Shown: in pieces, positions 19,846 through 37,765 of the stretch
Position numbering within the stretch: the stretch's first letter is position 1
How the letters are laid out: each line of letters starts with the position of its first letter
Assembly (NCBI GenBank): GCA_028066245.1
Contig: JALCBR010000008.1
Coordinates: 10,771-74,770 of the forward strand
Direction of reading: 5' to 3'
From: Pirellulales bacterium
Lineage (GTDB): Bacteria > Planctomycetota > Planctomycetia > Pirellulales > S012-138
DNA length: 64,000 nt
Position numbers and translations under genes: made by a program
The notes under the pieces: model-generated
Databases searched by the model: none
Told to the model about the DNA's origin: nothing
The model's input: the letters and a program-made list of their open reading frames with translations, nothing else

Positions 19846-19888
19846 ATGAAAAGAGCACGACGTTGATTTAACGTCGTGCTCTTTTCAT
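19846..19888. terminator. bidirectional hairpin terminator between convergent genes
   Basis: A perfect 19-bp stem, ATGAAAAGAGCACGACGTT / AACGTCGTGCTCTTTTCAT, with a 5-nt loop. The A- and T-runs give a U-rich 3' side on both strands. Confidence 0.8.
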
Positions 19889-19904: not shown

Positions 19905-22337
19905 CTATGAGCCCCCGCCACCGCCACCACTGCCTCTAACGTCGCCGGCGCCAATGTCGCCAATATCGCCGTCTCCAACCTCGACATCGGCGGGCTTTGT
20001 TCGCTGATTCTGCGTACTCATATTGTAGAGCTGATCGGCAGTGCTAAACCCGCTCTCCAGCTCGCTCTTGACGACGAGATTTCCCGCTGCGTCCAATACA
20101 AGTGTTTCGCCGGGAACGACAAGCTTTTTGTATCGCTGACCGCCACGCATATCGAGAATCATCTCGTCCGTGCGATAGTTGTGCTTGTATTGTTTGCGGC
20201 CGGGCCCATCGGGAAACTTGAACTCTGTCGGCCCGTTTTGCACAACGTCAATCGGCACGGGATTATCAACGAAGTAGTTGAGCCATTGGCCGCGCTTAGC
20301 TCTGATTGGAGCGAACAGCAAAGCCACCGCATCCTCGAACTTGAGCGGTGTCTCATCTGTGCTGGGTTCCCGCAGGTACAGCGTCACGCTTGGTTCAAGG
20401 CCCAAGCGAACCGGGCCGGTGATCATGTCAGCATATTCACCGACCGAGACCCATTCTGTGGGTTCACTCCACTCCGTAAACAGGTACGGTTCTTCAGCGT
20501 CACGTGCATCTTCCAGGTAGCCCGCCGGCAATTGGTAGTTGGGATTCTCCAAGACGAGTTGCACGCGGTACTGATATTCCACGCCCTGTTCGATTGTGGT
20601 GTCATAAAACCGCATCAAGAGGTCAGATGGCCCTTGCGGCGCCAAAGCTCCGTTAATGGTGAGTTGACTCTCGTCCTGGGTTGATTGGTTGGATGAGCCG
20701 CCTCCGAATCCACTGTCTCCTTGGTAAGATCGTAGCGTTTGCTCAAACACCACGGCGTCGGCTGCGGTATCCTGACCGTCAAGGAAGAGTACTACAATCC
20801 TCCGCAGCTCGTCGTTCTCTGTTTTGCGATAGATTTCATACCACATCTGATCGCGTTCTTTGAGGATCACGTCACCCACGAGCCGTAACTCAACGATCTT
20901 GGGGTTTAATAAGGGGATATCACTTGAGTTCCCATCGTCAATGACACGGAAAACACGATCCTGAAATTGTTCGGAATCAGGAGACGAGATGATCACTTGG
21001 GTGGGGTCATCACCGGCGGAGATCATCAACTTGCCTCGCCGTTCGATGACGGCCTTGAGGCCTTGTTCTGAATCGACCTGCTCGTCGTACTCCTGTTCAT
21101 GAGCTGAAAAGGAGACGTGATTGCTTCTCGCAGCTTGCCAATCACCGAGGACGCCGTCCAACGCGCGATAGATTGGGCCAGAGTTAATTTGTGGTATCGA
21201 TGCCGTGGTCATCTCTGATCCAAAGATACGACCAACGGCTGGGGGCAGCGGCAAGACGATTCCCGTATAAGGTAACACTTCCTGTGTGCGCGAATCCATC
21301 TGATCAATACTCATCGGGAAAATGTACCGGGGATCAACAATTTCTTCGACATCTGCCATCCAGTGCCTGCGCACTTGCTCGATGATTTCTTTCATCGTAT
21401 CGCTATCGAGCAGCTCCCAGTTTTCTCGTCCGCCACGAGTGCGGCGTTCAATCTTTGCTGCGACATACCGTGGCAATGTCAAGTTGGGTCCGAGTGTACC
21501 ACGCGTCCGCTGCCAGAATTCTTGGTGTTGAGCCACATGCGGAACGGTCCCGATAATGGAGATGAATGACGTCACTTCCGTTTTGCTATCGCCGGGAGCT
21601 TGGTAGCCGGATGGAGGCACATTCCCCGCCGTCGCTCCACGAGAAGGGGTGTCGCCTAGGGGATTGCCAAGTTCGCCACCGAGTTCGCCGATGCCATCTC
21701 CTCCGCGAAGGTCGCCCCCACGGAGATCCCCGCTACCCAAGTCACCACCGCCGCCGCCACGAACGTCGAAGCCCCCCCCGCCCGCGTCGAGATCTCCGCT
21801 ACCGACGTCGAGATCTCCGCCGCCAGGATTGGCACCAATCGCCCGGCCGTCACCGCCAACATTACCGGCAACGGCCAACACTTCACGAAGGCCTTGTGCC
21901 TTGACTTCAATCGCAGGCATCAGTTCCGGCTGGACGCGACGGGTAAGTATTTTTCGACCGCGCCGACCGATAACGTCATCCAGTTTGGGGACTCCGCCGC
22001 CTTCGCCAGAAGGATTGAGTTTCTCGTCATAGGGAGTCACGGTGATGTCTTGCAGGTCAACAAAGTCTTCCGGCTGGCCAGCTTGCACCAGATCATCCTT
22101 CTGTTTGACCAGACTGCTTAACTCGTCAGCGTCTCTGTCATAATAGGATTGGAAAACGGTGGTCACCAAAAACACCAGCACCAGCACGGCAAAAACACCC
22201 AAGGCAAGCTTTTCAAAGTGCTTCAGCATGAAGCCTTGCAATCCGCCAGAGTCCTTCTTCATGGCAATGGTTCCCGTTTCAGCAGTTGTGATCGCCAAGC
22301 GACCGTGTCTCTTAAGTGGATATATTGCCCGATTCAA
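19905..22337 (-). CDS. large bitopic protein with Gly/Asp repeats (third gene of the PilMN operon), unknown family
   Basis: 810-aa ORF. One TM helix (LALGVFAVLVLVFLVTTVF). It has a GGDL/GDLD/DVRGG low-complexity block and a poly-Gly C-terminus. An alternative start is Met26 (22262). Confidence 0.7.
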   Translation of the reverse strand: MNRAIYPLKRHGRLAITTAETGTIAMKKDSGGLQGFMLKHFEKLALGVFAVLVLVFLVTTVFQSYYDRDADELSSLVKQKDDLVQAGQPEDFVDLQDITVTPYDEKLNPSGEGGGVPKLDDVIGRRGRKILTRRVQPELMPAIEVKAQGLREVLAVAGNVGGDGRAIGANPGGGDLDVGSGDLDAGGGGFDVRGGGGGDLGSGDLRGGDLRGGDGIGELGGELGNPLGDTPSRGATAGNVPPSGYQAPGDSKTEVTSFISIIGTVPHVAQHQEFWQRTRGTLGPNLTLPRYVAAKIERRTRGGRENWELLDSDTMKEIIEQVRRHWMADVEEIVDPRYIFPMSIDQMDSRTQEVLPYTGIVLPLPPAVGRIFGSEMTTASIPQINSGPIYRALDGVLGDWQAARSNHVSFSAHEQEYDEQVDSEQGLKAVIERRGKLMISAGDDPTQVIISSPDSEQFQDRVFRVIDDGNSSDIPLLNPKIVELRLVGDVILKERDQMWYEIYRKTENDELRRIVVLFLDGQDTAADAVVFEQTLRSYQGDSGFGGGSSNQSTQDESQLTINGALAPQGPSDLLMRFYDTTIEQGVEYQYRVQLVLENPNYQLPAGYLEDARDAEEPYLFTEWSEPTEWVSVGEYADMITGPVRLGLEPSVTLYLREPSTDETPLKFEDAVALLFAPIRAKRGQWLNYFVDNPVPIDVVQNGPTEFKFPDGPGRKQYKHNYRTDEMILDMRGGQRYKKLVVPGETLVLDAAGNLVVKSELESGFSTADQLYNMSTQNQRTKPADVEVGDGDIGDIGAGDVRGSGGGGGGS

Positions 22338-22402
22338 TAAGCTGTCCGATTTCTTCGCATGATCCGCCCAGACAATTGGTGTGACTCAACACCGAGCCGA
22401 TG

Positions 22403-24154
22403 TTAGCGACCGCCGCCGCCCAAAGCGGGACTTCCGGTTTGCGCTACAGCGGCATCATCTCCCTCAGGTATGATTTCCGCCGGAGACTTACCGATGTTTT
22501 CGCGGACAGGCGTTTGATACAGATAGATTACGCCTCTCAGCTTGAGCACGACATCAGTCGGGGCGTATTCAACAAGCCCGCCAGTGTCCTGTTCTGATTC
22601 GGGGACGGCGTGCATGGCGCAGATCTGCTGGACCTCAATCGGCAACGGACTATCGGCAGCCAACCCGAAGAAACGACCGACCTCTGCCTGGTCGATGACC
22701 ACTTCCAGGTACAACGGGATCATGCGGAACTCCACATGTGGATTGTCTCTGACCGAATTCACTGGGTATCCCTGATCGTCCACATATCGGCCTTGTTCAA
22801 GTTTATCCTTCGAGCCGAGTTGAACTGTCACGGCGGGAAGCTCAAACCCCTTCAAACCCCAGTTCGGTTTAATTGTGGAATAGGCCGGGTTGTTTGCATC
22901 GGGCCGATTGCTGCCACCAAGCCTATTACGGTTGCCCAGATTGGGACGGCCGAGCGAAAACTCGCTTTCAGAGGCTTCGTCACCAAACCCCCCCATGAAA
23001 CCAATTCCACCTTCCATTCCCGGGCCTTCCATTCCAAGGTCTCCCATTCCCGGGCCTTCCATTCCAGGGCCTTCCATTCCGGGCCCGAGGCCCTCCGACT
23101 GTATGCCGCCTTCGCGTTTAGGGCCGAGACGGCCAATCCGTAGTTTGCGAATTTGCTTGATTGGCGCTTGATAGTGATCGGCGTCACCGTTGGTTTGGCC
23201 AATCACGTTGAGCACAGAGTACATCGCTGCCCAATACTCGATGGCATACTGAACTTGCGCCTCGGTAGGCGTTCCGGTCCAATTGAGGTAGGTTCCCAAG
23301 ACCAAGTCACGGTCCTGCCAGTCGACAATGCCTTCGTATTGAATTTGCGGCGTTGACTCCTGCATTGATCCCTGCTGCCAGGGTGTACTACCTACGCCGC
23401 CTCGGACATTGGCCGTGCCCTCAAAGTTGCCTGGGCCGATTTCCATCCCCATGTCGCCCTCTCCAATACCCCGCAGCCCTCTTCCTTGGCCGCCCCTGAC
23501 GTCGGTCGCCGCAGCGCCGCGAGGATTAAAACCTGGCATGCCATCCGAAAACTCTCCTGGTTCACCAAGTTCGCCCAGCCCAGGACCACTTTGCCGAGGA
23601 TTGCCCAGTCGGGGATTGTTGCCACGGTTGTCGCCGTCTTCGACACTCACTTCCGGCTCAATGACCTGCCGCACCTTGACGACATCATCAAGCCGCTTGA
23701 TTTCATCAGGAAGAATGGCCCAGTATCTGTCGCGATGTCGTGTCGTGATGTTGTCGATCTCTCCAGTCAAGAAATCGACGGCATCTTGGGACTTGTCTGA
23801 CAGTGTGCTTCTGAAATGTTCCTGCTGAGCCTGAAACCGTTTCTGCCAGATCTGGTAAACAATGTCAGTCAGTTCTGATTTCCTAGTCTCCAGCTCCTGC
23901 TTGATTGGATCATTGGGAATCTGGCTGGCTGTCACGCTGGTGATACTTTGGAAGGCCCTGTCTCGCGCCGCGACCTGCTCTGCAGTTGTGGACGTGATCA
24001 TCCACCAGCCGACTGCCCAGGCAGCGAGAAGTACAACAACGGCAGCGCCGCTGAGAATCCAAAACAGGTGTTTCTTCGAGTTATCCATGACATTCTGTCC
24101 AAGGTTCCGAAGTGCGATTGATTGTTCTCTGTTCGCTCCGTTGCCAGCGTGCAT
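22403..24154 (-). CDS. large bitopic protein with GPGMEG repeats (second gene of the PilMN operon), unknown family
   Basis: 583-aa ORF. One TM helix (LFWILSGAAVVVLLAAWAVGWWMI). It has low-complexity DVRGG / GELG / GPGMEG x5 segments. An alternative start is Met23 (24088). Confidence 0.7.
   Translation of the reverse strand: MHAGNGANREQSIALRNLGQNVMDNSKKHLFWILSGAAVVVLLAAWAVGWWMITSTTAEQVAARDRAFQSITSVTASQIPNDPIKQELETRKSELTDIVYQIWQKRFQAQQEHFRSTLSDKSQDAVDFLTGEIDNITTRHRDRYWAILPDEIKRLDDVVKVRQVIEPEVSVEDGDNRGNNPRLGNPRQSGPGLGELGEPGEFSDGMPGFNPRGAAATDVRGGQGRGLRGIGEGDMGMEIGPGNFEGTANVRGGVGSTPWQQGSMQESTPQIQYEGIVDWQDRDLVLGTYLNWTGTPTEAQVQYAIEYWAAMYSVLNVIGQTNGDADHYQAPIKQIRKLRIGRLGPKREGGIQSEGLGPGMEGPGMEGPGMGDLGMEGPGMEGGIGFMGGFGDEASESEFSLGRPNLGNRNRLGGSNRPDANNPAYSTIKPNWGLKGFELPAVTVQLGSKDKLEQGRYVDDQGYPVNSVRDNPHVEFRMIPLYLEVVIDQAEVGRFFGLAADSPLPIEVQQICAMHAVPESEQDTGGLVEYAPTDVVLKLRGVIYLYQTPVRENIGKSPAEIIPEGDDAAVAQTGSPALGGGGR
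23011..23085 (-). repeat. five tandem 15-bp coding repeats (CTTCCATTCCNGGGC on the plus strand)
   Basis: Read directly from the sequence. The repeats encode GPGMEGPGMEGPGMGDLGMEGPGMEG. Confidence 0.85.
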
Positions 24155-24171
24155 GCGCTGATCATGTAAAA

Positions 24172-26283
24172 TTATCCTGTCCCTGGCGTTGTCAATGTGG
24201 CAACGGCGTCACCTTCGTCTTCTTCACTGACGGGTGAGGGAATCACGAAGAGTTGAACTTCGAAAAAGAGCCGAATCCGCTCAATGTTTTCAGGCTTGTC
24301 GATCGCTGCTGGATCGTACGGGTCGTAGTCGGGATTGGCGATCATGACCGGTTGTTGCAGGCCGTCGGAATCGATCACCGGGTCCCGGATTTCAAAGCCG
24401 CCGGTCTTGCCGACGTGTTGGCGCAAATTAACAATCAACGTCTTTGCCAAGTACGCATAGGCGCTGTGTTCTGTGTCACCAGCGCCTCTTGGGGCGTTGT
24501 GATCGTGATAGCCGACGATCGTGATGATGTACCCTTGGGTGCCGGTCGCCCCATCTTGCGGGCCACCGCCCAGCGGTGAGGGGGCACCACCTGGCGGCGA
24601 GGCCGGTGATGGTGTGGAGAGTGGCGGTTCCCCGGATGCCTCCTCTGCCGCGTCGATCTCTTCTTGCGTCGGGGGTGGCTCTGGCATGCGCCCAGCGATG
24701 TAGTCTTCGGTTCGCTCAAATCGACCAAGGGTTTCCTTTTGTTGTTTCCACGCTTCGTACGTGCCCGGCTCTGAGTGAATGGCCTCGATATGCAAACCTT
24801 GAAGGTCTTTGAATTCCTCTGGGGCGTTGTCCACCACCTCTTGAGGCGCCTTCGTTGCTTGAGCGACCGTGGCCAATAAGTCCGGCCAGTGCATAAGCCT
24901 GAACTGGTTCTGCACAAAGATCTCGCCGACTTTGTCAATGCCTTGGAAGGCGGTCTTTCCGTTGGCGAACTCTTGCTTGTCCTTGTTGAATGTGGTCACC
25001 TTGTTGGTGGCTCCGCTCTCTGCCGTCTTTCGGTCTCCGTACTCCGGACTGGAAACATGCAGCGCATACCAATTGCCGGTAAAGCTGATTCCCAGAGCCA
25101 CCATCAGCACGGCGATGGCGGCCACCGCCCAAGGCTTCTTGGCTTCGATCATCCGGTTGTGGACGATTTCCGCCGGCATCAAGTTGGTTTCCAACCGTGC
25201 TTGCTGCAACCCTTGCAGGCACAAGCCGTAGCAGATACCGAATGATGAGGAGTGGTCTTTAAAGGCCGGCGCGTCGACGATGCCCGGGCCGACAAGCGTA
25301 TGGAATTCATCCACACGTTCCATGGGAATGTTGAGGTTCTGTTCAAGGAACCTCACCAAACCCGGCAGCTTGGCTCCGCCACCCAAGGCGACTCCGTGCT
25401 TGATCTTGGCTTTCTTGTCAATGTTGTTGAAGAACGTCAGCGATCGTTGGACCTCTGTAACCAAATCCGTGAACACGGGGCGCATGGCCTGGAACAGAGA
25501 CTTAGGGTTTTCCGCCTGCGTGGCGTTTCGTTTGAGGTGCTCAGCCTTGGCGAAGGTTTGCCGCAACTCCTTACTGAGAGCCTTGGTGAAGTTGCTGCCG
25601 CCAACGGGAATGCTCCGCTGCCAGACGCGAAATCCGTTCGTGATGACTAGATCCGTGGTCTCAGTGCCGATAGACAGCACGAGCACTGACTCCAGCAGGG
25701 TTTCCGGATCATAACTGTCATTGTCCGGCAGCCGTGGCATCTGGTCCGCCACGACATAGTTGTAGAGAGCGAGCGGCGCCAACTGGATGTAATCGACGTC
25801 GATCTTTGCTTCCGTGTAGGGCTGCAGTTGTTTATAGGTCTGGTCCCGCTTCATTGCGAACAGGCCGACCTCTGTTTCTAGGGAGAAGCCTTCCGCTTCG
25901 CTCCCGCCAGCCATCTGCTGGAAATCCCAGACAACATCATCCAAATCAAATGGAATCTGCTGCCGGGCTTCATACTTGACGAGGTCCGGAATCTTCTTGG
26001 ATTCCACCGGTGGTAACTTGATGAACCGTGACAGACCGTTTTGGCCAGGCACGTTAATCGCCACCTGATCTTCGCCGACATCGTTTCTCGACAGGAACGT
26101 CCGCAACGCTTCGGCAACGAGTTCCTCGCGGTTCGCTTCCGGTTGGCTGAGAATTTTGGGGTATTCGATGTAGTCGAATGCGTCAGCGCGGACGCGGCCT
26201 GTGGTATTGTCCGGAAGGCAGCGGAGAGCCTTGAGAGCGCAATCTCCAATATCAATACCCCAAACGCCTGAGACTTTCGCCAT
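24172..26283 (-). CDS. PilM-like actin-fold ATPase fused to a PilN-like membrane anchor and a large periplasmic domain
   Basis: VWGIDIGDCALKAL, LVLSIGTETTDLVI and GVALGGGAKLPGL are PilM/FtsA-type motifs. ETNLMPAEI plus the TM helix WAVAAIAVLMVALGISF corresponds to the PilN INLLP motif and helix. A Pro-rich linker and an approximately 150-aa C-terminal domain follow. Confidence 0.75.
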   Translation of the reverse strand: MAKVSGVWGIDIGDCALKALRCLPDNTTGRVRADAFDYIEYPKILSQPEANREELVAEALRTFLSRNDVGEDQVAINVPGQNGLSRFIKLPPVESKKIPDLVKYEARQQIPFDLDDVVWDFQQMAGGSEAEGFSLETEVGLFAMKRDQTYKQLQPYTEAKIDVDYIQLAPLALYNYVVADQMPRLPDNDSYDPETLLESVLVLSIGTETTDLVITNGFRVWQRSIPVGGSNFTKALSKELRQTFAKAEHLKRNATQAENPKSLFQAMRPVFTDLVTEVQRSLTFFNNIDKKAKIKHGVALGGGAKLPGLVRFLEQNLNIPMERVDEFHTLVGPGIVDAPAFKDHSSSFGICYGLCLQGLQQARLETNLMPAEIVHNRMIEAKKPWAVAAIAVLMVALGISFTGNWYALHVSSPEYGDRKTAESGATNKVTTFNKDKQEFANGKTAFQGIDKVGEIFVQNQFRLMHWPDLLATVAQATKAPQEVVDNAPEEFKDLQGLHIEAIHSEPGTYEAWKQQKETLGRFERTEDYIAGRMPEPPPTQEEIDAAEEASGEPPLSTPSPASPPGGAPSPLGGGPQDGATGTQGYIITIVGYHDHNAPRGAGDTEHSAYAYLAKTLIVNLRQHVGKTGGFEIRDPVIDSDGLQQPVMIANPDYDPYDPAAIDKPENIERIRLFFEVQLFVIPSPVSEEDEGDAVATLTTPGTG

Positions 26284-26840
26284 GGAAAGTGACCTCTTCG
26301 CGGTTACGTGCTAAAGCAGTTCTAGGAAAGCGGTTGGGCTTTCTGTTCGATTTTGCAACAGGCAGAATGCCTGAACGACATGCATCAAAGGAACCGCAGG
26401 TTCTCATTGTTTGCGGTCCCTGCACAACCGAATTGTCTACGGCTGGCATCATGCGACGAGACAACGGCTCACCCTAACTAATCTATCGATCAGGAGTTGG
26501 GGCTGTCAAACAATTTCAGGAGGGGTTCCGGAGCCGGATGTGCCGGTTTTTGAGATTTCTTGCTGCTCGCCCCGGACGACAGCCGCCCAATGGACGGTAC
26601 TCATCCATCTGCGCGCGACCGACGCACTGGCAGCCAGGATAACCCGAGAAGTTGGCCGGCAGCGGCATGGGGGTTCCGACTATATGAGAACTTAGATCTT
26701 ACGGAAAAGCGAAGATGAAGGATGCAACGTCCGTCCTAGCAAGAAGACGGGAACTTTTGATTTGCACCGGGTAAAGGCCCATAGCACAAGTTCACTGTGG
26801 TCTTGGGACATCCAGAAATTGCCCGACGCTGGAATCCATT

Positions 26841-26921: not shown

Positions 26922-28820
26922 CTACTGCCGGTTCATGTCGGTCGCTGCCGTCTCGAACGCTGCCGCTGCCGCGGCACTGGTGACTGAGAGGTAGTTGGTC
27001 ACGTTGGCGTCGTCAGTCATGCTCTGGTAGACCTTGGCCATCTGAATCCGCAGTTTCTTTTCATAGAGGTCGCGGTACAAGCCGTCACGGACGTCGCCCA
27101 AAGATACGGTTTGCGGCTCGGTCATACCTTCGCAGTACAGGATCACATAGTAATCGCCGACTTCAATCACGCCGGAGAGTTCCCCGGGCTTAAGGGCGAA
27201 AGCCTTCTCCTCAAGTTGCGGCTTGCCGCCGTGCTTCTGGATCGGAGGAATCTCTCCTTGCAGCGAGCGCAAACTGGCTTCCACAGAGTACCGCGTGCTT
27301 AATTGGCCGAAGTACTCAAGTGTGGGATTCTTGCGAGCGAGTTCCCAGGCCTCCTGGGCGGTCCGCAAGTTGTTCACCATGATCGCCCGAGCAATCACGC
27401 GCGGACCATAGTTGGCTTCAAAGGCGAATTGGAGATCTTCTTCGGTGACTTCGATTTGCAAACCTGAGACCTTGTGAGCAAGCTTCTTGAGGGCGACAGT
27501 GGGCCAAACCACATCATCCAGGTAACGCTGCCACTTGATCTCTTGCTCGCGCTCTACCATCACAACCCAGCGGTCGATATCGACTTTGCCCTCGGCGTCT
27601 GTCACACCCATGGACTCTGCCGCGCGACTGACTTCTTCCACAAGGTCCTGACGTTCCACCAGGATTTGATGTCTTTGGATATTTTGTTCCAACAGTCGGC
27701 GACTGATGGTGCCTTCCAGGATTTCCAGCCCGTGCCGATCCAGGCAAGCTTCTCCCAGTTCGCTCATGCTGATCTGGCGTCCGTTGACAATGGCAGCAAC
27801 GCCAGGATATTGCTGCGGCAGGCGTTCGTCTTCAGCCTCGAAAACCACGACCACGTTGGATTTTTCGCGGAGCTTGCCGAACACTTCCGTGGCGGCCATC
27901 GTTTCTTTCTTGCTCTGCAGTTCAAGCTTGATCTTGTCGCGAACGTTTTCAAACGGGAATTGTTTCGTGCGACTAGGGTGATGAGATTCGCACTTCAGAA
28001 TGATGAATTGGCCTTCAGCTTCGATAACATCCGAGACCTGTCCAGCCTGCAATCCAAAGGCAACACGTTCAATTTCCGGATCACCCAAGTTACGCCGGAT
28101 GGGTGGGATGTATCCTTCTCTACTGGCACTGGCGTCAATGGAATATTGCCGCGCCAGGCGACCAAAGTCTTGGGGGTTGGCCTTGGCAGCAGCAACAGCT
28201 TCAACCGCCGACTCTCGATCACGGCAGACCATGATTCGGGCATCGACTGTCGGCCCATACATAGCATGATAAAAAGCCAGTAGTTCTTCTTCGCTGATGT
28301 CCAGCAAGTCTTTGGCCGCAGCACGGAGCGCCAGCGCCGGCCAGATGATATCGTTGTCGTACTGGGAGGGTGAGATGTGTCGCTCATTCTTGAGCATGTT
28401 GCGCCATTCCTCGACCGACATGCCAAACCGCTTTGCTGTCTTGGCGACTTCCGCCTGGACGGCTGTCGTGGGAATGACGATGCCTTTGGATTGGCAATGC
28501 TGGTAGATCAGGTGCTTGTTGATCACACTTTCCAGCACGTCCCCGCCGTATGCCTTGATGCAATCGGCAGCGAGTTCGGCTCTGGTGACGGGCTCGCCGT
28601 TGACGAGTGCAACCGGATCAACGGGCTTGTAAGGATCTTCCGCCGCGTTAGGTTGGCTTTGCCGTTGCGGCTGGGCACCGGCTTCATCGGACTTCCAGAA
28701 TAACTTCGCCGCGACGCAGGCGCCAATAATGACAAGCCCTGCTGTCAAAAAGCCAAACCGTTTTCGCCAAGGCGAAGCGGCGGATTTTTGTTTCTTCCGA
28801 TTGCTATCCTGGGAAGCCAT
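26922..28820 (-). CDS. SurA/PrsA-like peptidyl-prolyl isomerase with two parvulin domains, membrane anchored
   Basis: N-terminal TM helix FGFLTAGLVIIGACVAAKLFW. Parvulin-like segments are GQVSDVIEAEGQFIILKCE and GELSGVIEVGDYYVILYCE. Confidence 0.75.
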   Translation of the reverse strand: MASQDSNRKKQKSAASPWRKRFGFLTAGLVIIGACVAAKLFWKSDEAGAQPQRQSQPNAAEDPYKPVDPVALVNGEPVTRAELAADCIKAYGGDVLESVINKHLIYQHCQSKGIVIPTTAVQAEVAKTAKRFGMSVEEWRNMLKNERHISPSQYDNDIIWPALALRAAAKDLLDISEEELLAFYHAMYGPTVDARIMVCRDRESAVEAVAAAKANPQDFGRLARQYSIDASASREGYIPPIRRNLGDPEIERVAFGLQAGQVSDVIEAEGQFIILKCESHHPSRTKQFPFENVRDKIKLELQSKKETMAATEVFGKLREKSNVVVVFEAEDERLPQQYPGVAAIVNGRQISMSELGEACLDRHGLEILEGTISRRLLEQNIQRHQILVERQDLVEEVSRAAESMGVTDAEGKVDIDRWVVMVEREQEIKWQRYLDDVVWPTVALKKLAHKVSGLQIEVTEEDLQFAFEANYGPRVIARAIMVNNLRTAQEAWELARKNPTLEYFGQLSTRYSVEASLRSLQGEIPPIQKHGGKPQLEEKAFALKPGELSGVIEVGDYYVILYCEGMTEPQTVSLGDVRDGLYRDLYEKKLRIQMAKVYQSMTDDANVTNYLSVTSAAAAAAFETAATDMNRQ

Positions 28821-29221: not shown

Positions 29222-32200
29222 TCAATACGCTGACTTGGCTTTGACGCCCTTATCTGTGTTGTTGTAGAGGTTCTCCAGGTTCTGCCGCTGCTGTTCAATG
29301 ATTATGCCGTTGCCGCCTTTCAACTGTTCGAGCAGTTTGACGTCAGCTTCCTCACTCGCTTGACCTTGCTGTTGAAGAACCTGACCGCCCGTTTGCACCA
29401 TGGGCGGGCCCAACTCCGTTTCACCGCGGAAGAATGCATAGCGACCGCTATCGGCTTGAGCGATGACCGTGGCTTGACCTGCAAGATTATCCGCCACGAA
29501 CACGCCGCGGAGGTCGGTCTCGCCAGAGACAATCTCCGGAGTGCGAGAACCGATGACCTTCACGTGCACATCTTTCAAGTAACGCCCAGAATCATTGTCT
29601 TTGACCGTCGCTCGCACGCGTCCGGATAACTGCTCTTCCTGAACCTCCAGTGTGAGCGGCGTGACAAGCACCAAGCCGGTGGCGTGTAAGTCATCCGCAC
29701 GGCACACAACCAGATACGCGCCCTCTTCGTCGAGCGGCAGGTCGAGTTCATGTTCCTTGTCCGCATAGTCCTTGCCATCACCCAAGGTGCTGGTGGACTC
29801 ATGCAGTGGCTTGATGCCTGCCAAGTTGATCTTGGTAACGTCATCTAAATCCCGCCGCAACAACCCGAACTTTGTCAGGTCGATACGATAGACCTTAGTA
29901 TCCAGCGACGCCACGTTGCGATAAGTGAGGTTGACCTTAGCGTCCTTGCCAGGCTCAAAAAACGAAACCTCCGGAAGTTCCGCTTCCTCGTGCGTGAAGT
30001 ACGCGATGGCCTGTGCGGCGTCCGCGAACTGCTCCTTCACCCGTTCGTACTCGTCGATTGCCTCTTTGGCTTTACCCAGGCTGTGATACACCTGTCCCAT
30101 GATGTACACGGCTTGCCATTTGTTGGGACTTTCCGTCTCCCTTCCAGAGTTGGCATCCATGCGCGTCGCTTCGGCCACCTTCTCGCACATCGCCAGAGCG
30201 TCTTCGTGTTCGCCTAGGGCGAAGTGACAATAACCAATCACGTACCAGAAGCTGTCGAGGTATTCGCTGTCATCATAGCGTTCCGCGTACCGATTACAGG
30301 CAGCGATGGCGGGACGGAAAGCTTCCAGCTCCAACAGCGCGTTGGCTGCGGAGAATGCCGCTTGCGCGGCTGCGGGATCATCCGGATAATGTGTGAGGAA
30401 TGATTCCAATCGTGTGAGCGCATCGCGAACAAGGTCCACGCCTAGGATATTCTCCTCGCGGAGTTCTGCATCAGCTTCCGCGGTAGGCGCTTTGGCATAA
30501 ATTCGCTGCGAGAGATAGTACGTCGCCGCCGCAACATAGGGTTCCGGTGGATACTCCATCAGCAGACGATCCATGACTTTCACGCTGCGGACGAACTCCT
30601 GCTGCGCTTCGAGGAAGCCCGCCACGCGGCTCTCGCGGGCAAAACTTCCCTCGACAGTTGCCCGGTACACGAGGTAAGCCCGTTCGTATTCGCCAACCTC
30701 TTCGTAGGCTTGGGCAACCCGGACAATCTTCTCAAAGGGAATTTCCTCGTCCGGGTAACGTTCCTTAACGATTTCAAACAAGCGAACGATCTCGGCCGGA
30801 CGGTTCGTTTGCAGGTTGACCTCCAACAGCATCAAAGCTGTCTCGCGATATGCATCGGCTCGTAGAGTCCAATTGGCGAAAAGGTCATCCAGGTATCTGC
30901 CAGCTTCGGCGTAGTTCTTCTTGGCGAAGTTCCGTTTGCCAAACTCAAACAATTCGCGCGGGCTCATGCGATACTCGTCCGCGCTGGCTTTGCCTTCTGC
31001 TAAGACTGTGAGTGTCTTGATCTTGGAGACGGCCAACGATTCCGGACGGTAGGCGTCGCGAACAATGGTGGGTCCAGCCTGGTAGACGCCCGGTAGGTAG
31101 CCGTGCACTTGGAAGCTAATCGTACCAATCGAACGTCGGTTACCGACAAAGAACGTAATGGAATCACTGGAGATCTCAAAGCGCTCAAAAGTTCCGCTGA
31201 TGCTGTCTTCAATCACTTGAACGCCTGCGGGGAGAGGCTCAGTGATAACCAGGTATTCCAGTTGCGAATCCGGCACGTTCGACGACAGGTTGTAGCGATT
31301 GACGTTCAGATGCACGATGCCGCGGTTCCCCTGGGGCAACTGTGTGAGGTTGTTGCGGAAGAACCGATAACGTTCGGCCACATCAAAGCCGCGCGGCACC
31401 TGGCGCCCGTCAAACTCCCTGGGAGCCGGCTCGTACTGACGTGTCACACGCCATTCTTGCGATGTGCTGGTGAGCTTTTCCGCAGGTACAAATCCAGAGA
31501 GCACGCACTGATAGGCGAAACGTCCTCGGCCAGTCATTTCAAAGTTGATCTGCTGCTTGCCATCCTGCAAGAGCTCGGTAGGTACTTGCACTCGTTGCGT
31601 AAGCGAGTCTTTGTCGACTTCGATCTCTTCAACCAATGCGTTGTTGACAAAGAGTTTGAGTGTATAGCGTTCGTGCTCGAACTGATTGCGGGCGTACCAG
31701 CCTGCCACTGCAGCGGTGGCTGGGCCAGTCGCTTTTTCCGGTGTCCACCGGGTTCCGCGACGATGCGTCATGAGCCATTCCACTTGCTCCTTCGCTTGTG
31801 GAGAACCGGGCGCGTATGCTTGCAGGGCCAATGCATACAGCGCGTGGAGCTCCACGGCGGAGTGACTCCACGGCAGCGAGCCACCGGCGACCTTACGCCG
31901 GGTCGTTGGAGTGTCCAAGTTCCGTTCCGCCAGCAGATCCAACAATTCGCTGGCCATTTGTCCGCGGTTCATTTCGATCAGAGCCAAGGCCAGGTGCGCC
32001 AATGCCGCGCTCGACAAGCTCGGACGGTTGCGATGCAACCGGTTGGCCAGCGCGAAATCACCTCGACCGGCAGCAGCCATGGCATGCAGCAATACGGCCT
32101 TGGTTTCGTAGTCGTTCTCAGAAACGGAGACAACGTGGTTAGCCAGGTAAGTCAGCGCACGATCGTGATTCTCATCAGGTACGCGGTAACCGCCCGACTT

Positions 32201-35200
32201 CGCTTCTGCCAGAGCCCAGACGGCTTGCGCAGTGGCGTATGCACTTCCGCGTCCTCCACGACCACTCCAACTCCAGGACCCGTCATCCTGCTGGGAAGCC
32301 ACCAGTGCACTGATGCTGGAACGAATGCGGCCATCCAGCGTTTGCGCCTCGACCGCTGTCGGCGAATCCGGTCCGCCGGCCAGGTTGCGTAGCGACAGCG
32401 CGGCCATCAATTCACTTGTTGTCACATCATGAGCGGAAGCGTAATTCAGGCAGAACTGCTGCACCGGAGTGGCCGGGCCCAGGATGATCTCCATGAGGTT
32501 CTGTTCGACACTGGGACCGACAACGATCTCCATTTTGCGGTCAGACAGCGGCATCTGCTTGTCTTGCTCGACCCAGGCAATCGTGTCGCTTTCCGCCGCA
32601 CCGCTGGCGGTCACAAATACGACTTCACCAAAGGGCGTGAGTGGAATGCTGCGTTGGACGGTATCCGTCAGGTCGCCGGAACGAACGATCAGTTCAAAGT
32701 CAATTGTGCTGTCGACCGTAGCGCCCTCAGGCAGCTTCACAGTCAAAGGGAAGTCAAACTGGCTGACGCCGGCTGCGGCTTCAATGGTTCGCTTCTCGCT
32801 GGTGGACTTGCCGCCGATGGTGGTCTTGAGTTCAAGCTCAACTTGCGTGTTGGCATCCGCGGCGACCATTTGGTTATGAACGGAGACCGCGATGCGTGCT
32901 TCGTCGCCCGATGTGAACGCAGCAGGCAGCTTGAGCTCGCCAAAGAGTTCTTTACTGGCGGTGAGTTCCGTTGTGGTTTCACCAGCCAGCGTGTCGGCCG
33001 TGATGCCCTTGGCTTGTAGCTGCCAGGCGGTGGAGCGGCTCGGTAGGGAGACCGTGATGGTCGCCTTGCCGTCCTCGTCTGTCACAATTGCAGGGCTCCA
33101 GTAACCGGTTTCCTGTATCGATCCTGGCTGCACAACAACCGCTCCATCCTCGGCAAGTTTTTCAGCCAACCGGCGGGTTGAATCCGGTCCCCGAGCCCAC
33201 ATGGTGCCGAGGTTGACGTTGGTTTGCCTGCCATCAGCAAACAAAACCGTGGCGTCTCTGTCTCCCCATTGATTGACGGCGGCCTTGTGGAAGTAGTCTA
33301 CGATAGTCGCCTTTGAGCTCTTGCCTTCAGTTATCAACAACGGTAGGTCCTGTAGCTGTTTTCCTGAGAGCTCGAAATAGTAGTTGGCACGTTCTCGGTT
33401 AAGGACCGCGTCGCCACTGAGATATCTCCGGGATTCAGCATCTGCAAGAAAGTCGGCACCGTCAGCCTGCCTGCGATCGAATCGTCCTCCGCCGCCACCA
33501 AGTCCACCGCCACCGAATCCGCCCGAACTCGGACGACCGAAGACTTGGAACGGCATATCCTGAGAATTGATACCGAAGCCGGTGGTTCCCCTCGCGTTTT
33601 CCTTGAATTGTCCATTGATGGCGACTTCGGCCTGCGGCTGCAGCGCGCTTTCCAGCGCCTGTTGCGCATCGTTGAACGGCCACGTGCCGGAGGAACGATC
33701 CCGGTCCATTTCAGCGGAAGCATTTGCGTCTGGGGGCACCGGTGTGGCCGTTCTGGCCAACGCTTCGCGATTTGGGTTGGGCGAATTGAAGGTCATCGCT
33801 TCCAGTCGCGATCTTTCCGCATGCGCCAGGGCGATACGGTCCGCCTCAGAGAGCAAGTCGGGATTAATTGCCTCTGTAGCCGGTCGGTAGTTAAACGTAA
33901 TGCTGGAGGTCGTTCGCACGGCCGCTTCACGAGGTTGACCTCGGAAGAAGCTGTCAATTTCTCCCTCTTGCCGATCGAACCGTTCGGCGAGCGCCTGCTC
34001 AACCATGCCCAGGCTTAATTTCGCGGAGACCGGCTTGCCTTGGTTGTTGGTGGTGGTGATGGTCACTTCGACATCGTCGCCCGGGCGGAGGTCGCCCTCT
34101 CCCGCGGCACGCTTGGTTTCCATGGTGACGCGTAAATCGCGGGCAACGACGAATGGGCTTTCCGCGGTGTGAAATCGTTGTGGTGGAACGAGTGTCTCTA
34201 TCGCCAACTCAGCTTCCGCCTCAGTGGTGGTGCTTTTGGCTTCGCGGATGTCTTGCATGACCGCCACGGAGAGTTGGAAGTTAGGGGCCAGTTCGGCCGA
34301 CATGGGCATTGTCAATTCGTTGTCGCCGGTGGCTAGTCGCACAATTTGGTACTTCAGCACACGCGCGCCTTGATAGGTGATCAAGGCCAACGTTGGTTCC
34401 TCGCGCCAGTGCAAGTTGACCTTGGCGTCATCCCCCACTTTGTAACTATGCTTTTCCGCCAGGATGCGGAGCCGAACACCATCGGTGTCGTCAGAAACAT
34501 TGACGAGAGAACTGCCGGTGATCGATTTTTCAAAACGGTCAATGCCGCTTGCACGCAGCATGTACTGCGCACCGTCGTCCAAGTTTAGCGTGATCGTGGC
34601 CTTGCCAGTCTCGGCATCGGTGGTTAACTCGTGCGTGTTGACGGTCGTCTCACCCACGCGGTTGCTGCCTGGGCTTCGCGTTCGCTTGAGCACGCTGAGC
34701 GTGATGTTTTCCGCCAATGGTTTGCCTTCGGCATCGCGAGCCGTGACAGTAGCTTCAAACGATTCTCCCGCCAAGTACGTGGCCGATGCGCGGGACGTGG
34801 CTACATCCAGCGAGAAGCCCTGCGTGGCGATGATGAAGTTTCTCTGCACGGCAATGCCGAGTTCGTTCAATTGAGCCGTAAACGCGACGATCTGAGATTC
34901 ATCCAGTTCGCGCGTTTCCAAGCGGAAAGGAACACGCCCTTGGGCGTCAGTCGTCGCCGTTTGTGAACGGCCATCCAGATCGGTATAGGTGATTTGTTTG
35001 CTGGCGACCGGCGCGCCGTAATAGTACTGGGCGAGAATCTCGCCTTCGATGACTTCTCCGCGGTAGTAAACCGCGCGATCGGTCTCGATGGTTAGTTGCA
35101 CCGGTTCTAGCTTGAACTCGGCCACGGTAAACACACCGGCGTACTGTTGTGGAGATTGACCTAATGCTGGATTGGATTCAACCAACGCAAGCCGATACGC

Positions 35201-37765
35201 GCCTTGCGCGGCTTCCGGGGGCAGCGTAACTTGGGTGTGGAACGCGCCGAACTCGTCAAGTTGGACTGCTTCTTCAGACAAGCTGCGGCCGCGGGCGTCA
35301 AAAACCTCCAGCGAGAATTCTTGATCCGCGTTGATCGCGTAGCGGTCATCCTCGACGTCGCGAACAACGCCGCGAATGTGGACGAACTCGCCAGGACGGT
35401 AAATCGGTCGATCCGTGTAGATATAACCTTTTTCTGTCAAACCTTGGGCGACGCCAATTCCGTCCAGACTGATGATGTTGCTGGCGACGTGACCATCTGA
35501 AACGGCAAACACGCGAACGTCGTTGGCGCCTTGCAGTTCGTCATAGGTGCCTTGATAGACGCCGTCCTCTCCTGTTTCCACCTCTGCAAACACCGTCGAG
35601 CCGTCGGAGATCAACAGGCGAACATCAGGCCAAGCTTCACCGGTGCGCATGTTCTGAGCGAACACGAAGACTTCATCACGCGAGCTTTTGACGATCACGT
35701 CCAGGTCACTTTGGATGACCAAGGTTGTGGCTTCCAGCTTGCCTTCGGAGACTGTCACGGCCATCACTTGAGGCTGGCGTTCGACATCGCCTTCGCCGTC
35801 TTTGCGAATGGCTACGCTCGACTGGAATTGCTGATATTTCTGATAGTCAGAAACGGGAAAGGAAAAGCGGCTATCGGGATCGATCAGCGCGACATCGAGG
35901 TTCTCCACCCCGCGAGCCAAGTGCATCTTGCGAAAGTAGGTCTCCAAGTCGATGCGGTATGCGCTCACATCGACAGACTCCACGTTGCGCGAAATCAGAT
36001 CCACGGCCGGATCTTCATCCGTACGATACACTCGCGTGGTAGCAATGGTCATTTCCGTTTGTGTCAGCGCCGCGTGGCGGACCGCAGCGTGGGGCGCATA
36101 TTCGCCATATTTGACCAGGGCATATTCCTTTAAGGCGTCTTCCAGCCGGCCAAGCTTTGTCTCCAAGGTCATGGCGATCATGAACTGAGCGCGCGACGCT
36201 TCGTTGGAGCCGGGATACTTGGAGACAACAGTCCGCCAAGCCTCAATCGCCTTCTCAAACTCGTCCTGCAGAAACTCCATTCGGCCAAAGTCAAACAGGA
36301 TCAGTCGGCAGCGGTCTTCCAGCGGGTGTTTACGGAGGAATTCGTCCCACAAGCTGCGGGCCGCCTGGTAGTCTTCTTCCGCCAGAGCTTCCTGGCCTTG
36401 CAGGTATTCGGTGTCGATGATCATTCGCTGCACGGAGGTCCATTGACCGTGCGCGGGGTGCTTGGCCAAGTAGTCAGTCCAGGCTGCTAGAGCTTCCTTA
36501 AATTTCTTTTGCGCTTGATAAGCCTGGCCCAACAGCACGCGGGCTTCTGGTGTTCGTTCATCTTCCGCATAGGCGTCATTCGCCAGAAACTGCTGCAATT
36601 CCTCAATGCCGGACTCCCATTGACCGCGGGCAAAGAACGAACGGGCGATCTGTAGTTGCGCATTGGGGGCGAGCTCGTCGTCTGGATGTTCAGCCAGGAA
36701 TGTGCGCAGCTCGGCCACACCTAGGTTCAACGCTTCATCGGTTTGCGGCTGCGGGAGACCGAACGTATGTGCAATCCGGTAACGCAGAGCGTTCATCCTT
36801 ACGCCCTGCAGGTCGAGTTGTGGTGAGGCCGGGTCGTCAATCTTCGCGTCTTCGTCAGGTTCGGCAGGGGCGGAGATGGAGCCATCGGTCACCTTAGCCA
36901 GCAAGTCCTGCCAAGCTCGGCGCGCTGGTCTGGGCGATCCCTGCGCCATGTAGCATTCACCAAGCCGGTAGCGGGCTACTGCGTTCAAGCCGTGTTCCGG
37001 ATGTGTTTTGATAAACCGCTCTAAACGGTTGATTGCTTCTTGGGGATTACCAAGCAGTTGCAAGCAGCGGGCAATCCGCAGTTCAACTTGTTCTTTCCGT
37101 TCCGCTGCAGGGCCAACCTCCATCGCTTGCTGATAGAACTCGAACGCTTTGGCATAGTTGGGGTCCGTTGACTCTTTCTCCGGGTGGAAATAGAGATCGG
37201 CAAATTCCAGGTAGATGGCGGCGATCTCCTGTTTCCGTTCCGCACCCAACAGATACTCAGCTTCGGCTCGGTAGATCTGCTCCGCGGAGCGGTAGTTGCC
37301 TTTCCGCATATAGGCGATGGCCGCGGCAAACCGTGCCTGACGAAGCCAAGAACTGTCTGGATGTTGCGTTTCCAATTCATTGAAGGCCGCGATTGCTTCG
37401 TCATACTTTTCCGCCAAAGCGAAGGCCCGACCCTTGAGGTATTGGAAGCGGTCAGCGTGTTCTTTGTCTGCGGACATGGCCGCGTCCAGTGCCGCTTGAG
37501 CTTCCTCATATTTGCGATCCTGCAGCAATGCCCGGACTTCTTTCGGCAGCTCTGGTTGTGTGCCGAGGATCTGAGAGGTCAGCGGCTGCGACGGCTTGCC
37601 TTGCTCTTGATTCCAGATGGCGTTGCGAGCTATCGCTCCCAATGGGAGGCCGAGCGCAAACAAGACGCCGAGGAGAAGGATTCTCCGTCCGCGGCTGCGC
37701 TGTGGTTGTCGAGTTGACTTATTGTTAACGGGATTCGATTGCAGGCGAATCAGACGCTGGCTCAT
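29222..37765 (-). CDS. giant TPR / alpha-2-macroglobulin-family / TPR / CarboxypepD_reg-like protein
   Basis: The start at 37765 (MSQRLIRL) is preceded by AAGGAG; the ORF is open to 37873. MG-domain motifs are YIYTDRPIYRPGEFVHIRGVV and FTVAEFKLEPVQL...AQYYYGAPV. A TED-like region reads YATAQAVWALAEA. TPR arrays lie on both sides. The C-terminal part is RVRATVKDNDSGRYLKDVHVKVIG. Confidence 0.8.
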   Translation of the reverse strand: MSQRLIRLQSNPVNNKSTRQPQRSRGRRILLLGVLFALGLPLGAIARNAIWNQEQGKPSQPLTSQILGTQPELPKEVRALLQDRKYEEAQAALDAAMSADKEHADRFQYLKGRAFALAEKYDEAIAAFNELETQHPDSSWLRQARFAAAIAYMRKGNYRSAEQIYRAEAEYLLGAERKQEIAAIYLEFADLYFHPEKESTDPNYAKAFEFYQQAMEVGPAAERKEQVELRIARCLQLLGNPQEAINRLERFIKTHPEHGLNAVARYRLGECYMAQGSPRPARRAWQDLLAKVTDGSISAPAEPDEDAKIDDPASPQLDLQGVRMNALRYRIAHTFGLPQPQTDEALNLGVAELRTFLAEHPDDELAPNAQLQIARSFFARGQWESGIEELQQFLANDAYAEDERTPEARVLLGQAYQAQKKFKEALAAWTDYLAKHPAHGQWTSVQRMIIDTEYLQGQEALAEEDYQAARSLWDEFLRKHPLEDRCRLILFDFGRMEFLQDEFEKAIEAWRTVVSKYPGSNEASRAQFMIAMTLETKLGRLEDALKEYALVKYGEYAPHAAVRHAALTQTEMTIATTRVYRTDEDPAVDLISRNVESVDVSAYRIDLETYFRKMHLARGVENLDVALIDPDSRFSFPVSDYQKYQQFQSSVAIRKDGEGDVERQPQVMAVTVSEGKLEATTLVIQSDLDVIVKSSRDEVFVFAQNMRTGEAWPDVRLLISDGSTVFAEVETGEDGVYQGTYDELQGANDVRVFAVSDGHVASNIISLDGIGVAQGLTEKGYIYTDRPIYRPGEFVHIRGVVRDVEDDRYAINADQEFSLEVFDARGRSLSEEAVQLDEFGAFHTQVTLPPEAAQGAYRLALVESNPALGQSPQQYAGVFTVAEFKLEPVQLTIETDRAVYYRGEVIEGEILAQYYYGAPVASKQITYTDLDGRSQTATTDAQGRVPFRLETRELDESQIVAFTAQLNELGIAVQRNFIIATQGFSLDVATSRASATYLAGESFEATVTARDAEGKPLAENITLSVLKRTRSPGSNRVGETTVNTHELTTDAETGKATITLNLDDGAQYMLRASGIDRFEKSITGSSLVNVSDDTDGVRLRILAEKHSYKVGDDAKVNLHWREEPTLALITYQGARVLKYQIVRLATGDNELTMPMSAELAPNFQLSVAVMQDIREAKSTTTEAEAELAIETLVPPQRFHTAESPFVVARDLRVTMETKRAAGEGDLRPGDDVEVTITTTNNQGKPVSAKLSLGMVEQALAERFDRQEGEIDSFFRGQPREAAVRTTSSITFNYRPATEAINPDLLSEADRIALAHAERSRLEAMTFNSPNPNREALARTATPVPPDANASAEMDRDRSSGTWPFNDAQQALESALQPQAEVAINGQFKENARGTTGFGINSQDMPFQVFGRPSSGGFGGGGLGGGGGRFDRRQADGADFLADAESRRYLSGDAVLNRERANYYFELSGKQLQDLPLLITEGKSSKATIVDYFHKAAVNQWGDRDATVLFADGRQTNVNLGTMWARGPDSTRRLAEKLAEDGAVVVQPGSIQETGYWSPAIVTDEDGKATITVSLPSRSTAWQLQAKGITADTLAGETTTELTASKELFGELKLPAAFTSGDEARIAVSVHNQMVAADANTQVELELKTTIGGKSTSEKRTIEAAAGVSQFDFPLTVKLPEGATVDSTIDFELIVRSGDLTDTVQRSIPLTPFGEVVFVTASGAAESDTIAWVEQDKQMPLSDRKMEIVVGPSVEQNLMEIILGPATPVQQFCLNYASAHDVTTSELMAALSLRNLAGGPDSPTAVEAQTLDGRIRSSISALVASQQDDGSWSWSGRGGRGSAYATAQAVWALAEAKSGGYRVPDENHDRALTYLANHVVSVSENDYETKAVLLHAMAAAGRGDFALANRLHRNRPSLSSAALAHLALALIEMNRGQMASELLDLLAERNLDTPTTRRKVAGGSLPWSHSAVELHALYALALQAYAPGSPQAKEQVEWLMTHRRGTRWTPEKATGPATAAVAGWYARNQFEHERYTLKLFVNNALVEEIEVDKDSLTQRVQVPTELLQDGKQQINFEMTGRGRFAYQCVLSGFVPAEKLTSTSQEWRVTRQYEPAPREFDGRQVPRGFDVAERYRFFRNNLTQLPQGNRGIVHLNVNRYNLSSNVPDSQLEYLVITEPLPAGVQVIEDSISGTFERFEISSDSITFFVGNRRSIGTISFQVHGYLPGVYQAGPTIVRDAYRPESLAVSKIKTLTVLAEGKASADEYRMSPRELFEFGKRNFAKKNYAEAGRYLDDLFANWTLRADAYRETALMLLEVNLQTNRPAEIVRLFEIVKERYPDEEIPFEKIVRVAQAYEEVGEYERAYLVYRATVEGSFARESRVAGFLEAQQEFVRSVKVMDRLLMEYPPEPYVAAATYYLSQRIYAKAPTAEADAELREENILGVDLVRDALTRLESFLTHYPDDPAAAQAAFSAANALLELEAFRPAIAACNRYAERYDDSEYLDSFWYVIGYCHFALGEHEDALAMCEKVAEATRMDANSGRETESPNKWQAVYIMGQVYHSLGKAKEAIDEYERVKEQFADAAQAIAYFTHEEAELPEVSFFEPGKDAKVNLTYRNVASLDTKVYRIDLTKFGLLRRDLDDVTKINLAGIKPLHESTSTLGDGKDYADKEHELDLPLDEEGAYLVVCRADDLHATGLVLVTPLTLEVQEEQLSGRVRATVKDNDSGRYLKDVHVKVIGSRTPEIVSGETDLRGVFVADNLAGQATVIAQADSGRYAFFRGETELGPPMVQTGGQVLQQQGQASEEADVKLLEQLKGGNGIIIEQQRQNLENLYNNTDKGVKAKSAY

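Follow-up and report, generated by a model that had tools for sequence, protein, structure and literature searches.

A natural PilM-PilN fusion and two giant bitopic proteins in Pirellulales: a probable inner-membrane subcomplex of a secretin-based type IV filament machine

In the type II secretion system (T2SS), GspL combines a cytoplasmic actin-like domain, a transmembrane (TM) helix and a periplasmic domain, GspM is bitopic and resembles PilO, and GspC is a TM-anchored connector to the N0 domain of the secretin. The type IVa pilus (T4aP) of Pseudomonas aeruginosa, Myxococcus xanthus and Thermus thermophilus relies on the series PilM-PilN-PilO-PilP-PilQ. In Akkermansia, Amuc_1098-1102 are co-abundant envelope proteins for which pili-like structures have been proposed (PMC5332112), encoded in the order PilM-like, Amuc_1100, Amuc_1099 and the secretin Amuc_1098 (PMC5332112; PMC13174399). 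This cluster is now termed MUL2, with Amuc_1101 as MUL2B, its PilM protein; it is kept in Verrucomicrobiales beside a secretion-channel gene and has been implicated in mucin acquisition (PMC13174399; PMC12418764). Here, we address a three-gene operon of a Pirellulales metagenome-assembled genome (MAG; NCBI locus tags MPJ50_03770/03775), found in a 64-kb window, that is, the whole stretch of DNA analysed; the source contig, the only one of this MAG covered, measures 80.5 kb and extends past the window. The three minus-strand open reading frames (ORFs) are named g1, g2 and g3 in operon order. We consider it likely that this trio represents the alignment subcomplex, seated in the cytoplasmic membrane and the periplasm, of a secretin-based type IV filament machine from the type IV pilus (T4P)/T2SS family, in a form belonging to the Planctomycetes-Verrucomicrobia-Chlamydiae (PVC) superphylum. 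The genes are:

24172 to 26283, minus strand: g1, predicted PilM-PilN fusion of 703 aa, with GspL-like architecture and similar to Amuc_1101/MUL2B (matches to PilM_2, TIGR01175 and Amuc_1101_fam).
22403 to 24154, minus strand: g2, bitopic protein, 583 aa as the longest ORF; probable start at 24088, giving 561 aa.
19905 to 22337, minus strand: g3, bitopic periplasmic protein at the PilP/GspC operon position, 810 aa as the longest ORF; probable start at 22262, giving 785 aa.

Our ORF calls agree with an earlier reading of this DNA (hereafter the original prediction) in recognizing three co-directional genes at these coordinates, separated by 17 and 65 nt when the longest-ORF starts are used; the internal ATG starts of g2 and g3, favoured by family alignments and NCBI calls, widen these gaps to 83 and 140 nt. 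Each of the three proteins carries exactly one strongly hydrophobic helix on the Kyte-Doolittle scale, in keeping with the single N-terminal TM helix originally proposed for g2 and for g3.

The gene order of the trio is strictly kept. ORFs were called in 80 related loci and iterative profiles were built for each operon position: a g2-family gene directly follows g1 in 63 of 65 loci, and a g3-family gene directly follows g2 in 56 of 57. Relatives of g1 occur in at least 589 species-representative genomes; thus, the absence of conservation beyond this strain, which the original prediction had named as an outcome that would count against it, did not occur. The trio is among the most widely conserved envelope gene sets of Pirellulales-type planctomycetes. 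A secretin of 1,000-1,600 aa comes directly after g3 in 22 of the 45 loci with enough flank and is not in the flank of the other 23, and two complete planctomycete genomes have an operon with a long PilM gene at its head and a Pfam Secretin gene as the last. The operon studied here stops at a terminator after g3, with no secretin as terminal gene of the pilMNOPQ type; as was originally noted, no pilin, PilB/PilT, PilC or secretin gene lies adjacent to the trio in the window, and a tblastn search for the operon-type secretin inside the window gave no match. The orthologous secretin of this genome is found on the same contig and strand as the trio, 38 kb off:

Locus L083, 12798 to 16442, approximately window positions 64,616 to 68,260 and so just past the window end, minus strand: secretin of 1,214 aa (profile E 4e-205; PF00263 E 4e-22).

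Over ~1,100 residues, this protein shares 45-51% identity with the operon-linked secretins. Its N-terminal extension is long, Q/N-rich and helical, and it further contains an N0-like domain and, at residues 1003-1200, the PF00263 domain; its PilQ and GspD model scores are about equal and always below the cutoffs. The trio is therefore genetically coupled to a giant secretin which, in this genome, is unlinked rather than absent. With a secretin following g3 in about half of the informative loci and an orthologue on this very contig, the description of the operon as stand-alone had to be given up: its isolated appearance results from the window edge together with the unlinked gene arrangement of this lineage. 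As a separate observation, in loci L002/L004, L017, L032, L059, L064 and L079 (isolate names MFD...) the secretin, and sometimes the g1-g3 genes, are split into overlapping ORF fragments. Fragmented secretins occur in error-prone long-read MAGs only, intact orthologues exist elsewhere, and assembly frameshift errors (in presumed long-read data) are a likelier cause than pseudogenization.

The first gene provides the firmest link to pilus machines. Its parts are:

25210 to 26283, minus strand: cytoplasmic PilM actin-like ATPase fold, aa 1-358 (PDB PilM chains 3JC8, 1e-25, 2YCH and 5EOX).
25168 to 25191, minus strand: PilN-type N-terminal peptide LETNLMPAE, aa 365-372 (invariant motif; 5EOU alignment).
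25069 to 25137, minus strand: TM helix, ~aa 383-405 (the sole Kyte-Doolittle window above 1.8 in g1).
24175 to 25068, minus strand: periplasmic region, aa 406-703, with a Pro/Gly-rich linker at aa 534-585 and a conserved GYH-x-HN block.

Residues 9-357 cover the PilM_2 profile (PF11104) from end to end (E 3.7e-33; 115.3 bits against a cutoff of 27; profile positions 1-338 of 340), and g1 also passes the pilM model TIGR01175 (142.6 bits against a cutoff of 133). Across 29 g1 homologues, the phosphate/adenosine motifs D11-I12-G13, G206-T207-T210 and G301/G308 are invariant and, with the nucleotide-binding motifs intact, ATP binding by the PilM domain is predicted. The same homologues share an invariant T366-N367-L368-x-P370-x-E372, followed by the sole TM helix of the protein, which opens with the conserved K382-P384-W385-A386; in the periplasmic region H593, H595 and N596 are likewise invariant. 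When searched with phmmer, g1 aligned with the engineered crystallographic chimera PilM-PilN(1-12) (PDB 5EOU) through the PilN peptide (...QQARL-ETNLMP vs ...SSGMA-RINLLP), with the same spacing after the PilM fold. This alignment and the invariant motif establish the PilM-PilN fusion reading as correct for motif, anchor and topology; the originally proposed joining of PilN in cis thus stands for the peptide, the single TM helix and the topology but not for the 300-residue periplasmic part, in which no PilN domain was found. The N-in, C-out bitopic layout typical of PilN, a peptide and then a single TM helix, is present in g1; instead of forming a separate downstream polypeptide, the PilN part is fused in cis within one 703-aa ORF, as it is throughout the ~700-aa g1 family, for which more than 5,699 homologues (a lower bound) were counted. 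Judged from its sequence, g1 is a PilM actin-like ATPase that carries a PilN-type peptide, a TM helix and a periplasmic domain in cis, a natural PilM-PilN fusion mirroring the engineered chimera. Its top NCBIfam match is Amuc_1101_fam (NF045709, 'Amuc_1101 family PilM-like pilus complex protein'; E 1.4e-64), which aligns residues 49-479 with positions 47-463 of the 608-position profile and hence spans the TM helix and enters the periplasmic part; at 219 bits, below the equivalog cutoff of 650, this is the closest named family, but g1 is not an equivalog member. The g1 family is already routinely annotated as PilM, whereas neither Pfam nor NCBIfam offers a model for the g2 or the g3 family. The novelty claimed for the system as a whole is accordingly confined to g2 and g3, g1 being related to Amuc_1101/MUL2B.

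For g2, the identification is more indirect, as the protein has no Pfam, NCBIfam or PDB sequence match; its relatives likewise match no Pfam family, and profile searches of PDB with g2 or g3 yielded noise. In its conservation map, the TM helix is joined by three conserved stretches, one a helical segment and two further blocks at 271-345 and 451-560, and Gly/Asp/Met/Pro tracts without conservation keep these elements apart:

22475 to 22804, minus strand: conserved C-terminal beta-alpha-beta-(insert)-beta core (alignment occupancy 0.77-0.99).
23345 to 23644, minus strand: first low-complexity Gly/Asp/Arg/Met linker (alignment occupancy 0.09-0.5; predicted local distance difference test, pLDDT, 20-25).
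22805 to 23119, minus strand: second low-complexity linker.

The core is predicted to consist of strands at 454-466, 484-494 and 512-524 and a helix at 467-479. Low-complexity fractions vary widely within all three families, with medians of 0.11 for g1, 0.31 for g2 (range 0-0.57) and 0.20 for g3. Among 51 g2-family members, 13 match Amuc_1100_fam (NF038287) weakly (best E 2.4e-4; equivalog cutoff 180 bits), and no other family recurs as often; the matches fall on the structured beta-alpha-beta core, outside the low-complexity tracts, and the g2 of the window itself shows none. A low-confidence structural model of g2 predicts a TM helix followed by long helices, and a Foldseek search of this model against 350,542 PDB chains placed Amuc_1100 (6LAD, 6KNY, 6LAF) on top, with probabilities of 0.82-0.97, and PilO (5UVR, 2RJZ and 3JC8 chain O) within the top 12, with probabilities of 0.96-0.99, root-mean-square deviations of 3.0-3.8 A and E-values of 0.03-0.09. 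Both PilO and Amuc_1100 had been named as candidates before the fold search. Since synteny, the NCBIfam signal and the fold matches agree on the same two families, none being decisive alone, we take g2, with moderate confidence, to be a PilO/Amuc_1100-like bitopic protein.

The third protein is better modelled, and its two structured domains are:

21264 to 21911, minus strand: alpha/beta domain with a disordered Gly/Asp insertion (AlphaFold2).
20064 to 20621, minus strand: all-beta C-terminal domain, consensus LFRFFDFxVEPGKxYRYRV, the best-conserved region of the family (pLDDT mostly >90).

An exhaustive HMMER search recovered 853 cluster representatives of g3 at E <= 1e-3, conservation being highest in the C-terminal domain, and the AlphaFold2 model, built from a 121-sequence alignment, reached a predicted template modelling score (pTM) of 0.63, with 296 residues at pLDDT >= 90. 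Its layout runs from the TM helix through the alpha/beta domain (strands and helices at 118-131 and 227-333 in 785-aa numbering, pLDDT 86-98; disordered insertion at 143-210, pLDDT <50) and a variable middle to the all-beta C-terminal domain. By sequence, g3 matches nothing in Pfam, NCBIfam or PDB, its family gives no Amuc_1099 signal, and the HR beta-sandwich domain (PF04351) that defines PilP/GspC membership is not found in it; it is only the operon position, the TM anchoring and the beta-rich C-terminus that suggest a connector at the PilP/GspC position. A paralogous relationship between g2 and g3, put forward originally on the basis of common motifs, was rejected: no relationship emerged between the conserved cores (hhalign probability 4%), and the motifs in question sit in low-occupancy (0.09-0.5), non-conserved linkers. 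Independently of this, a short R-[YF]-x-D-[F] motif was observed in g1 (~674-680), g2 (~455-459) and g3 (~575-582; longest-ORF numbering), where it opens the last conserved beta-rich block (family consensus RYDFxVQF, RYVD and LFRFFDFxVE, respectively). It is picked up by hhalign, with a probability of 29% for the g1 C-terminal profile against g3 and of 4% for g2 against g3, and it could be a strand-level interaction motif common to the trio, or chance.

How closely does this set resemble the described machines? The T4aP series shares with it the PilM fold with ATP-binding motifs, the INLLP-type peptide and the bitopic anchor, a second, probably PilO-like bitopic protein and, in operon order, a third periplasmic protein before the secretin; PDB matches point the same way, to PilM (3JC8, 2YCH, 5EOX) for g1 and to the PilO fold (5UVR, 2RJZ, 3JC8_O) for g2. 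On the other hand, PilM and PilN are here one polypeptide, Pfam detects no PilN, PilO or PilP domain in the trio, g3 is a large TM-anchored multidomain protein instead of a small lipoprotein, the trio proteins are 3-4 times the canonical size, the giant planctomycete secretin bears a long N-terminal extension, and the planctomycete genes are usually unlinked from pilins and motors. By analogy with the T2SS, the architectures may be paired one for one, g1 with GspL, g2 with GspM and g3 with GspC, and the partner secretin scores about equally with the GspD and PilQ models. Unlike GspL, however, g1 is by sequence a member of the PilM family and has kept the nucleotide-binding motifs and the INLLP peptide; moreover, no GspL, GspM or GspC model is matched, except for NCBIfam GspM in one of the 51 g2-family members (E 0.04), and no GspE, GspF or pseudopilin operon lies nearby. 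The Akkermansia MUL2 cluster, finally, belongs like the trio to the PVC superphylum and follows the same order of a long PilM-like protein, a bitopic Amuc_1100/PilO-like protein, a further envelope protein and a secretin; Amuc_1101_fam is the best family of g1 through the TM helix into the periplasmic part, and Amuc_1100 emerges for g2 in both the family matches and the top fold matches. Yet the scores lie far under the equivalog cutoffs (219 vs 650 for g1; weak E-values at most for g2), the planctomycete g2 and g3 are 2-3 times larger and contain long disordered inserts, g3 has no detectable relationship to Amuc_1099, neither the window nor the two annotated loci from complete genomes show an Amuc_1102-type pilin 5' of g1 (the others were not screened), and the planctomycete secretin measures 1,000-1,600 aa vs 805 and is unlinked in this genome.

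Several results weigh against reading the trio as an alignment subcomplex, and we set them together here. Pfam PilN (PF05137) has no match at E <= 1 in g1 and none at E <= 0.1 in its C-terminal half, a profile of which retrieved no PilN from PDB, only noise. None of the Pfam families PilN, PilO, PilP, GspM and GspC is matched by g2 or by 51 members of its family, nor by 49 relatives of g3, among which no Pfam or NCBIfam family recurs; hence, of the other adverse outcome named in the original prediction, the scoring of g2 and g3 as PilO, PilP or PilQ did not occur in Pfam. A direct hhalign comparison of the g2 family with a single Amuc_1100 sequence, checked to be identical to PDB 6KNY/6LAD, gave a probability of 1.9%, and a local hidden Markov model of the g2 family aligned with Amuc_1100 through low-complexity sequence only, at a noise-level score (2,000 shuffles). 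The g2 model behind the fold matches derives from a 2-sequence alignment and is of low confidence (pLDDT 37), with Foldseek E-values of only 0.02-0.1 overall; the g3 model retrieved from PDB generic Ig-like matches only (E >= 0.016) and no PilP/GspC. As for genomic context, a PilB/T/GspE-type ATPase occurs near the operon in one of ~78 loci, and in general the operon is not linked to a motor ATPase, a platform protein or a pilin; a prepilin-type ORF is present in two loci and in this window. Against these stand the secretin in orthologous operons, the PilM/PilN features of g1 and the PilO/Amuc_1100 fold matches of g2, and it is these that bear out the first of two readings originally offered, an extremely diverged, unlinked PilMNOP-like complex.

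Should the trio act as such an alignment subcomplex, the PilM domain of g1 would bind its own TNLMP peptide, as PilM does PilN, and the PilM domains would form a cytoplasmic ring docking a motor and a platform. In the periplasm, the g1 domain would pair with the PilO/Amuc_1100-like core of g2, while g3 would take the PilP/GspC role, its beta-rich C-terminal domain bridging to the N-terminal domains of the secretin. The low-complexity tracts are non-conserved and predicted to be disordered; these variable Gly/Asp/Met/Pro linkers may serve as flexible tethers across the wide and variable planctomycetal periplasm.

The same kind of machine could also be imagined in another service, as a MUL2-like apparatus for polymer capture and uptake (or secretion), possibly underlying the large crateriform structures together with their fibres. 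We regard this as unlikely, if far from negligible. Each cell has ~100 crateriform structures, which join the outer to the cytoplasmic membrane and are of unknown composition; they carry 12-nm fibres that bind gold-dextran, after which dextran accumulates in the periplasm (PMC5394234). The best family of g1 is Amuc_1101/MUL2B, g2 is probably Amuc_1100-like, and the system includes giant secretins and long tethers; reviews tie mucin accumulation in internal compartments of Akkermansia to MUL genes, including pili genes (PMC12418764; PMC13174399), and among the publications consulted we found none that assigns genes to crateriform structures or ties them to PilM or secretin genes. For planctomycetes, however, the argument is purely associative: strong MUL2 homology holds for g1 only, g3 lacks an Amuc_1099 signal, no Amuc_1102-like pilin was seen 5' of g1 in the loci examined for it, and presence of the operon in Planctopirus or Gemmata, the organisms in which crateriform structures and fibres are studied, was not confirmed. 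The more specific proposal, that the operon and the giant secretin encode the large crateriform structures with their fibres, as a planctomycete counterpart of Akkermansia MUL2, is by analogy conceivable and, in our estimation, rather improbable. If true, type IV filaments would have given rise, across the PVC superphylum, to a machine for capturing macromolecules and bringing them into the periplasm, and the disordered linkers would be length-adaptable tethers bridging this enlarged compartment. The trio and its secretin supply candidate genes for the composition of crateriform structures and fibres and for the passage of macromolecules across the outer membrane.

A second alternative, the other reading originally offered, sees in the trio an independent scaffold of actin-like type at the membrane, unrelated to pili or secretion, that would serve budding without FtsZ or the organization of the envelope. 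The actin fold is common to PilM and FtsA, g1 matches the Pfam FtsA SHS2 domain (E 1e-10), and the trio is transcriptionally isolated in this genome by its own promoter-like site and terminator; in addition, division scaffolds in Pirellulales are, to our knowledge, unknown. Yet g1 falls far below the FtsA model TIGR01174 (32.3 bits against a cutoff of 175.85), which it matches in a local stretch at residues 200-260 only, whereas the PilM models pass. Given, in addition, the invariance of the PilN-type peptide, the secretin linked to the operon or, as here, on the same contig, and the PilO and Amuc_1100 fold matches of g2, we judge a scaffold of this kind very improbable, and reading the trio as the inner half of a MUL2-related secretin machine corrects the division-scaffold idea. 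That g2 and g3 might be fast-evolving, mostly disordered proteins without a specific role, or mis-called ORFs, with g1 alone functional, is scarcely credible: low-complexity, Gly/Pro-rich sequence makes up ~28% of g2, no family of Pfam or NCBIfam covers either protein, and word-index searches returned for both self-matches and one relative only, but the latter failure is explained by low-complexity tracts swamping the candidate list, and the conserved cores and strict synteny of g2 and g3 in 56-63 loci, as well as the many cluster representatives and confident model of g3, speak against it.

Regarding expression of the trio, the following features were recognized:

26480 to 26509, minus strand: promoter-like TTGACA-N18-TAGATT 5' of g1 (consensus scan, 10/12 matches).
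26284 to 26479, minus strand: g1 leader of ~190 nt, from the promoter-like site to the g1 ATG, with an AAGAGG Shine-Dalgarno-like element at its end.
19846 to 19888, minus strand: intrinsic-terminator-like hairpin closing the operon, with a perfect 19-bp stem and a 5-nt loop.

Non-coding DNA 5' of g1 measures 638 bp, close to the ~640 bp first estimated. The ~240 nt nearest to g1 (26284-26520, minus strand, compared with L003:9760-10000) are far better conserved than the distal intergenic DNA. In this relative, L003 (75% identity), the promoter-like block is near-identical and the leader is kept, including 34 identical nt before the g1 ATG; in more distant loci, conservation of the promoter-like site was looked for and not found, and only a purine-rich Shine-Dalgarno-like element is common with the leader. 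An Rfam scan of the upstream region and leader gave nothing credible. The perfect 19-bp hairpin reported at the other end of the operon is confirmed, with a delta-G of -35.3 kcal/mol (z = -8.6) and no equally stable structure among 200 shuffles.

Elsewhere in the window, an ECF (extracytoplasmic function) sigma factor (5473-6090), an anti-sigma-like coiled-coil protein (6078-6797) and a 343-aa ORF (6794-7825) form a plus-strand group at 5473-7825, in which gene ends overlap. The last ORF was considered as the operon-type secretin and rejected: its similarity is a sub-threshold stretch at residues 256-291 (PF00263 E 2e-4), and it is not an orthologue. Two DUF1559 (SBP_bac_10) proteins are encoded on the plus strand at 45047-47581 and 48099-49022, the second with a classic prepilin N-terminus and methyl motif; this is the only pilin-like gene of the window, ~22 kb from the trio and on the opposite strand. 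Upstream of a SurA-like protein with two peptidyl-prolyl isomerase domains (26922-28820), the minus strand encodes at 29222-37873 a protein of 2,883 aa in which many TPR/YfiO-like repeats accompany a bacterial alpha-2-macroglobulin core (MG2, bMG3, A2M bait region, A2M and bMG10). At 49294-52014, also on the minus strand, a 906-aa YidC homologue (60KD_IMP and YidC periplasmic domain) contains an inserted PDZ domain, an unusual feature for a membrane insertase.

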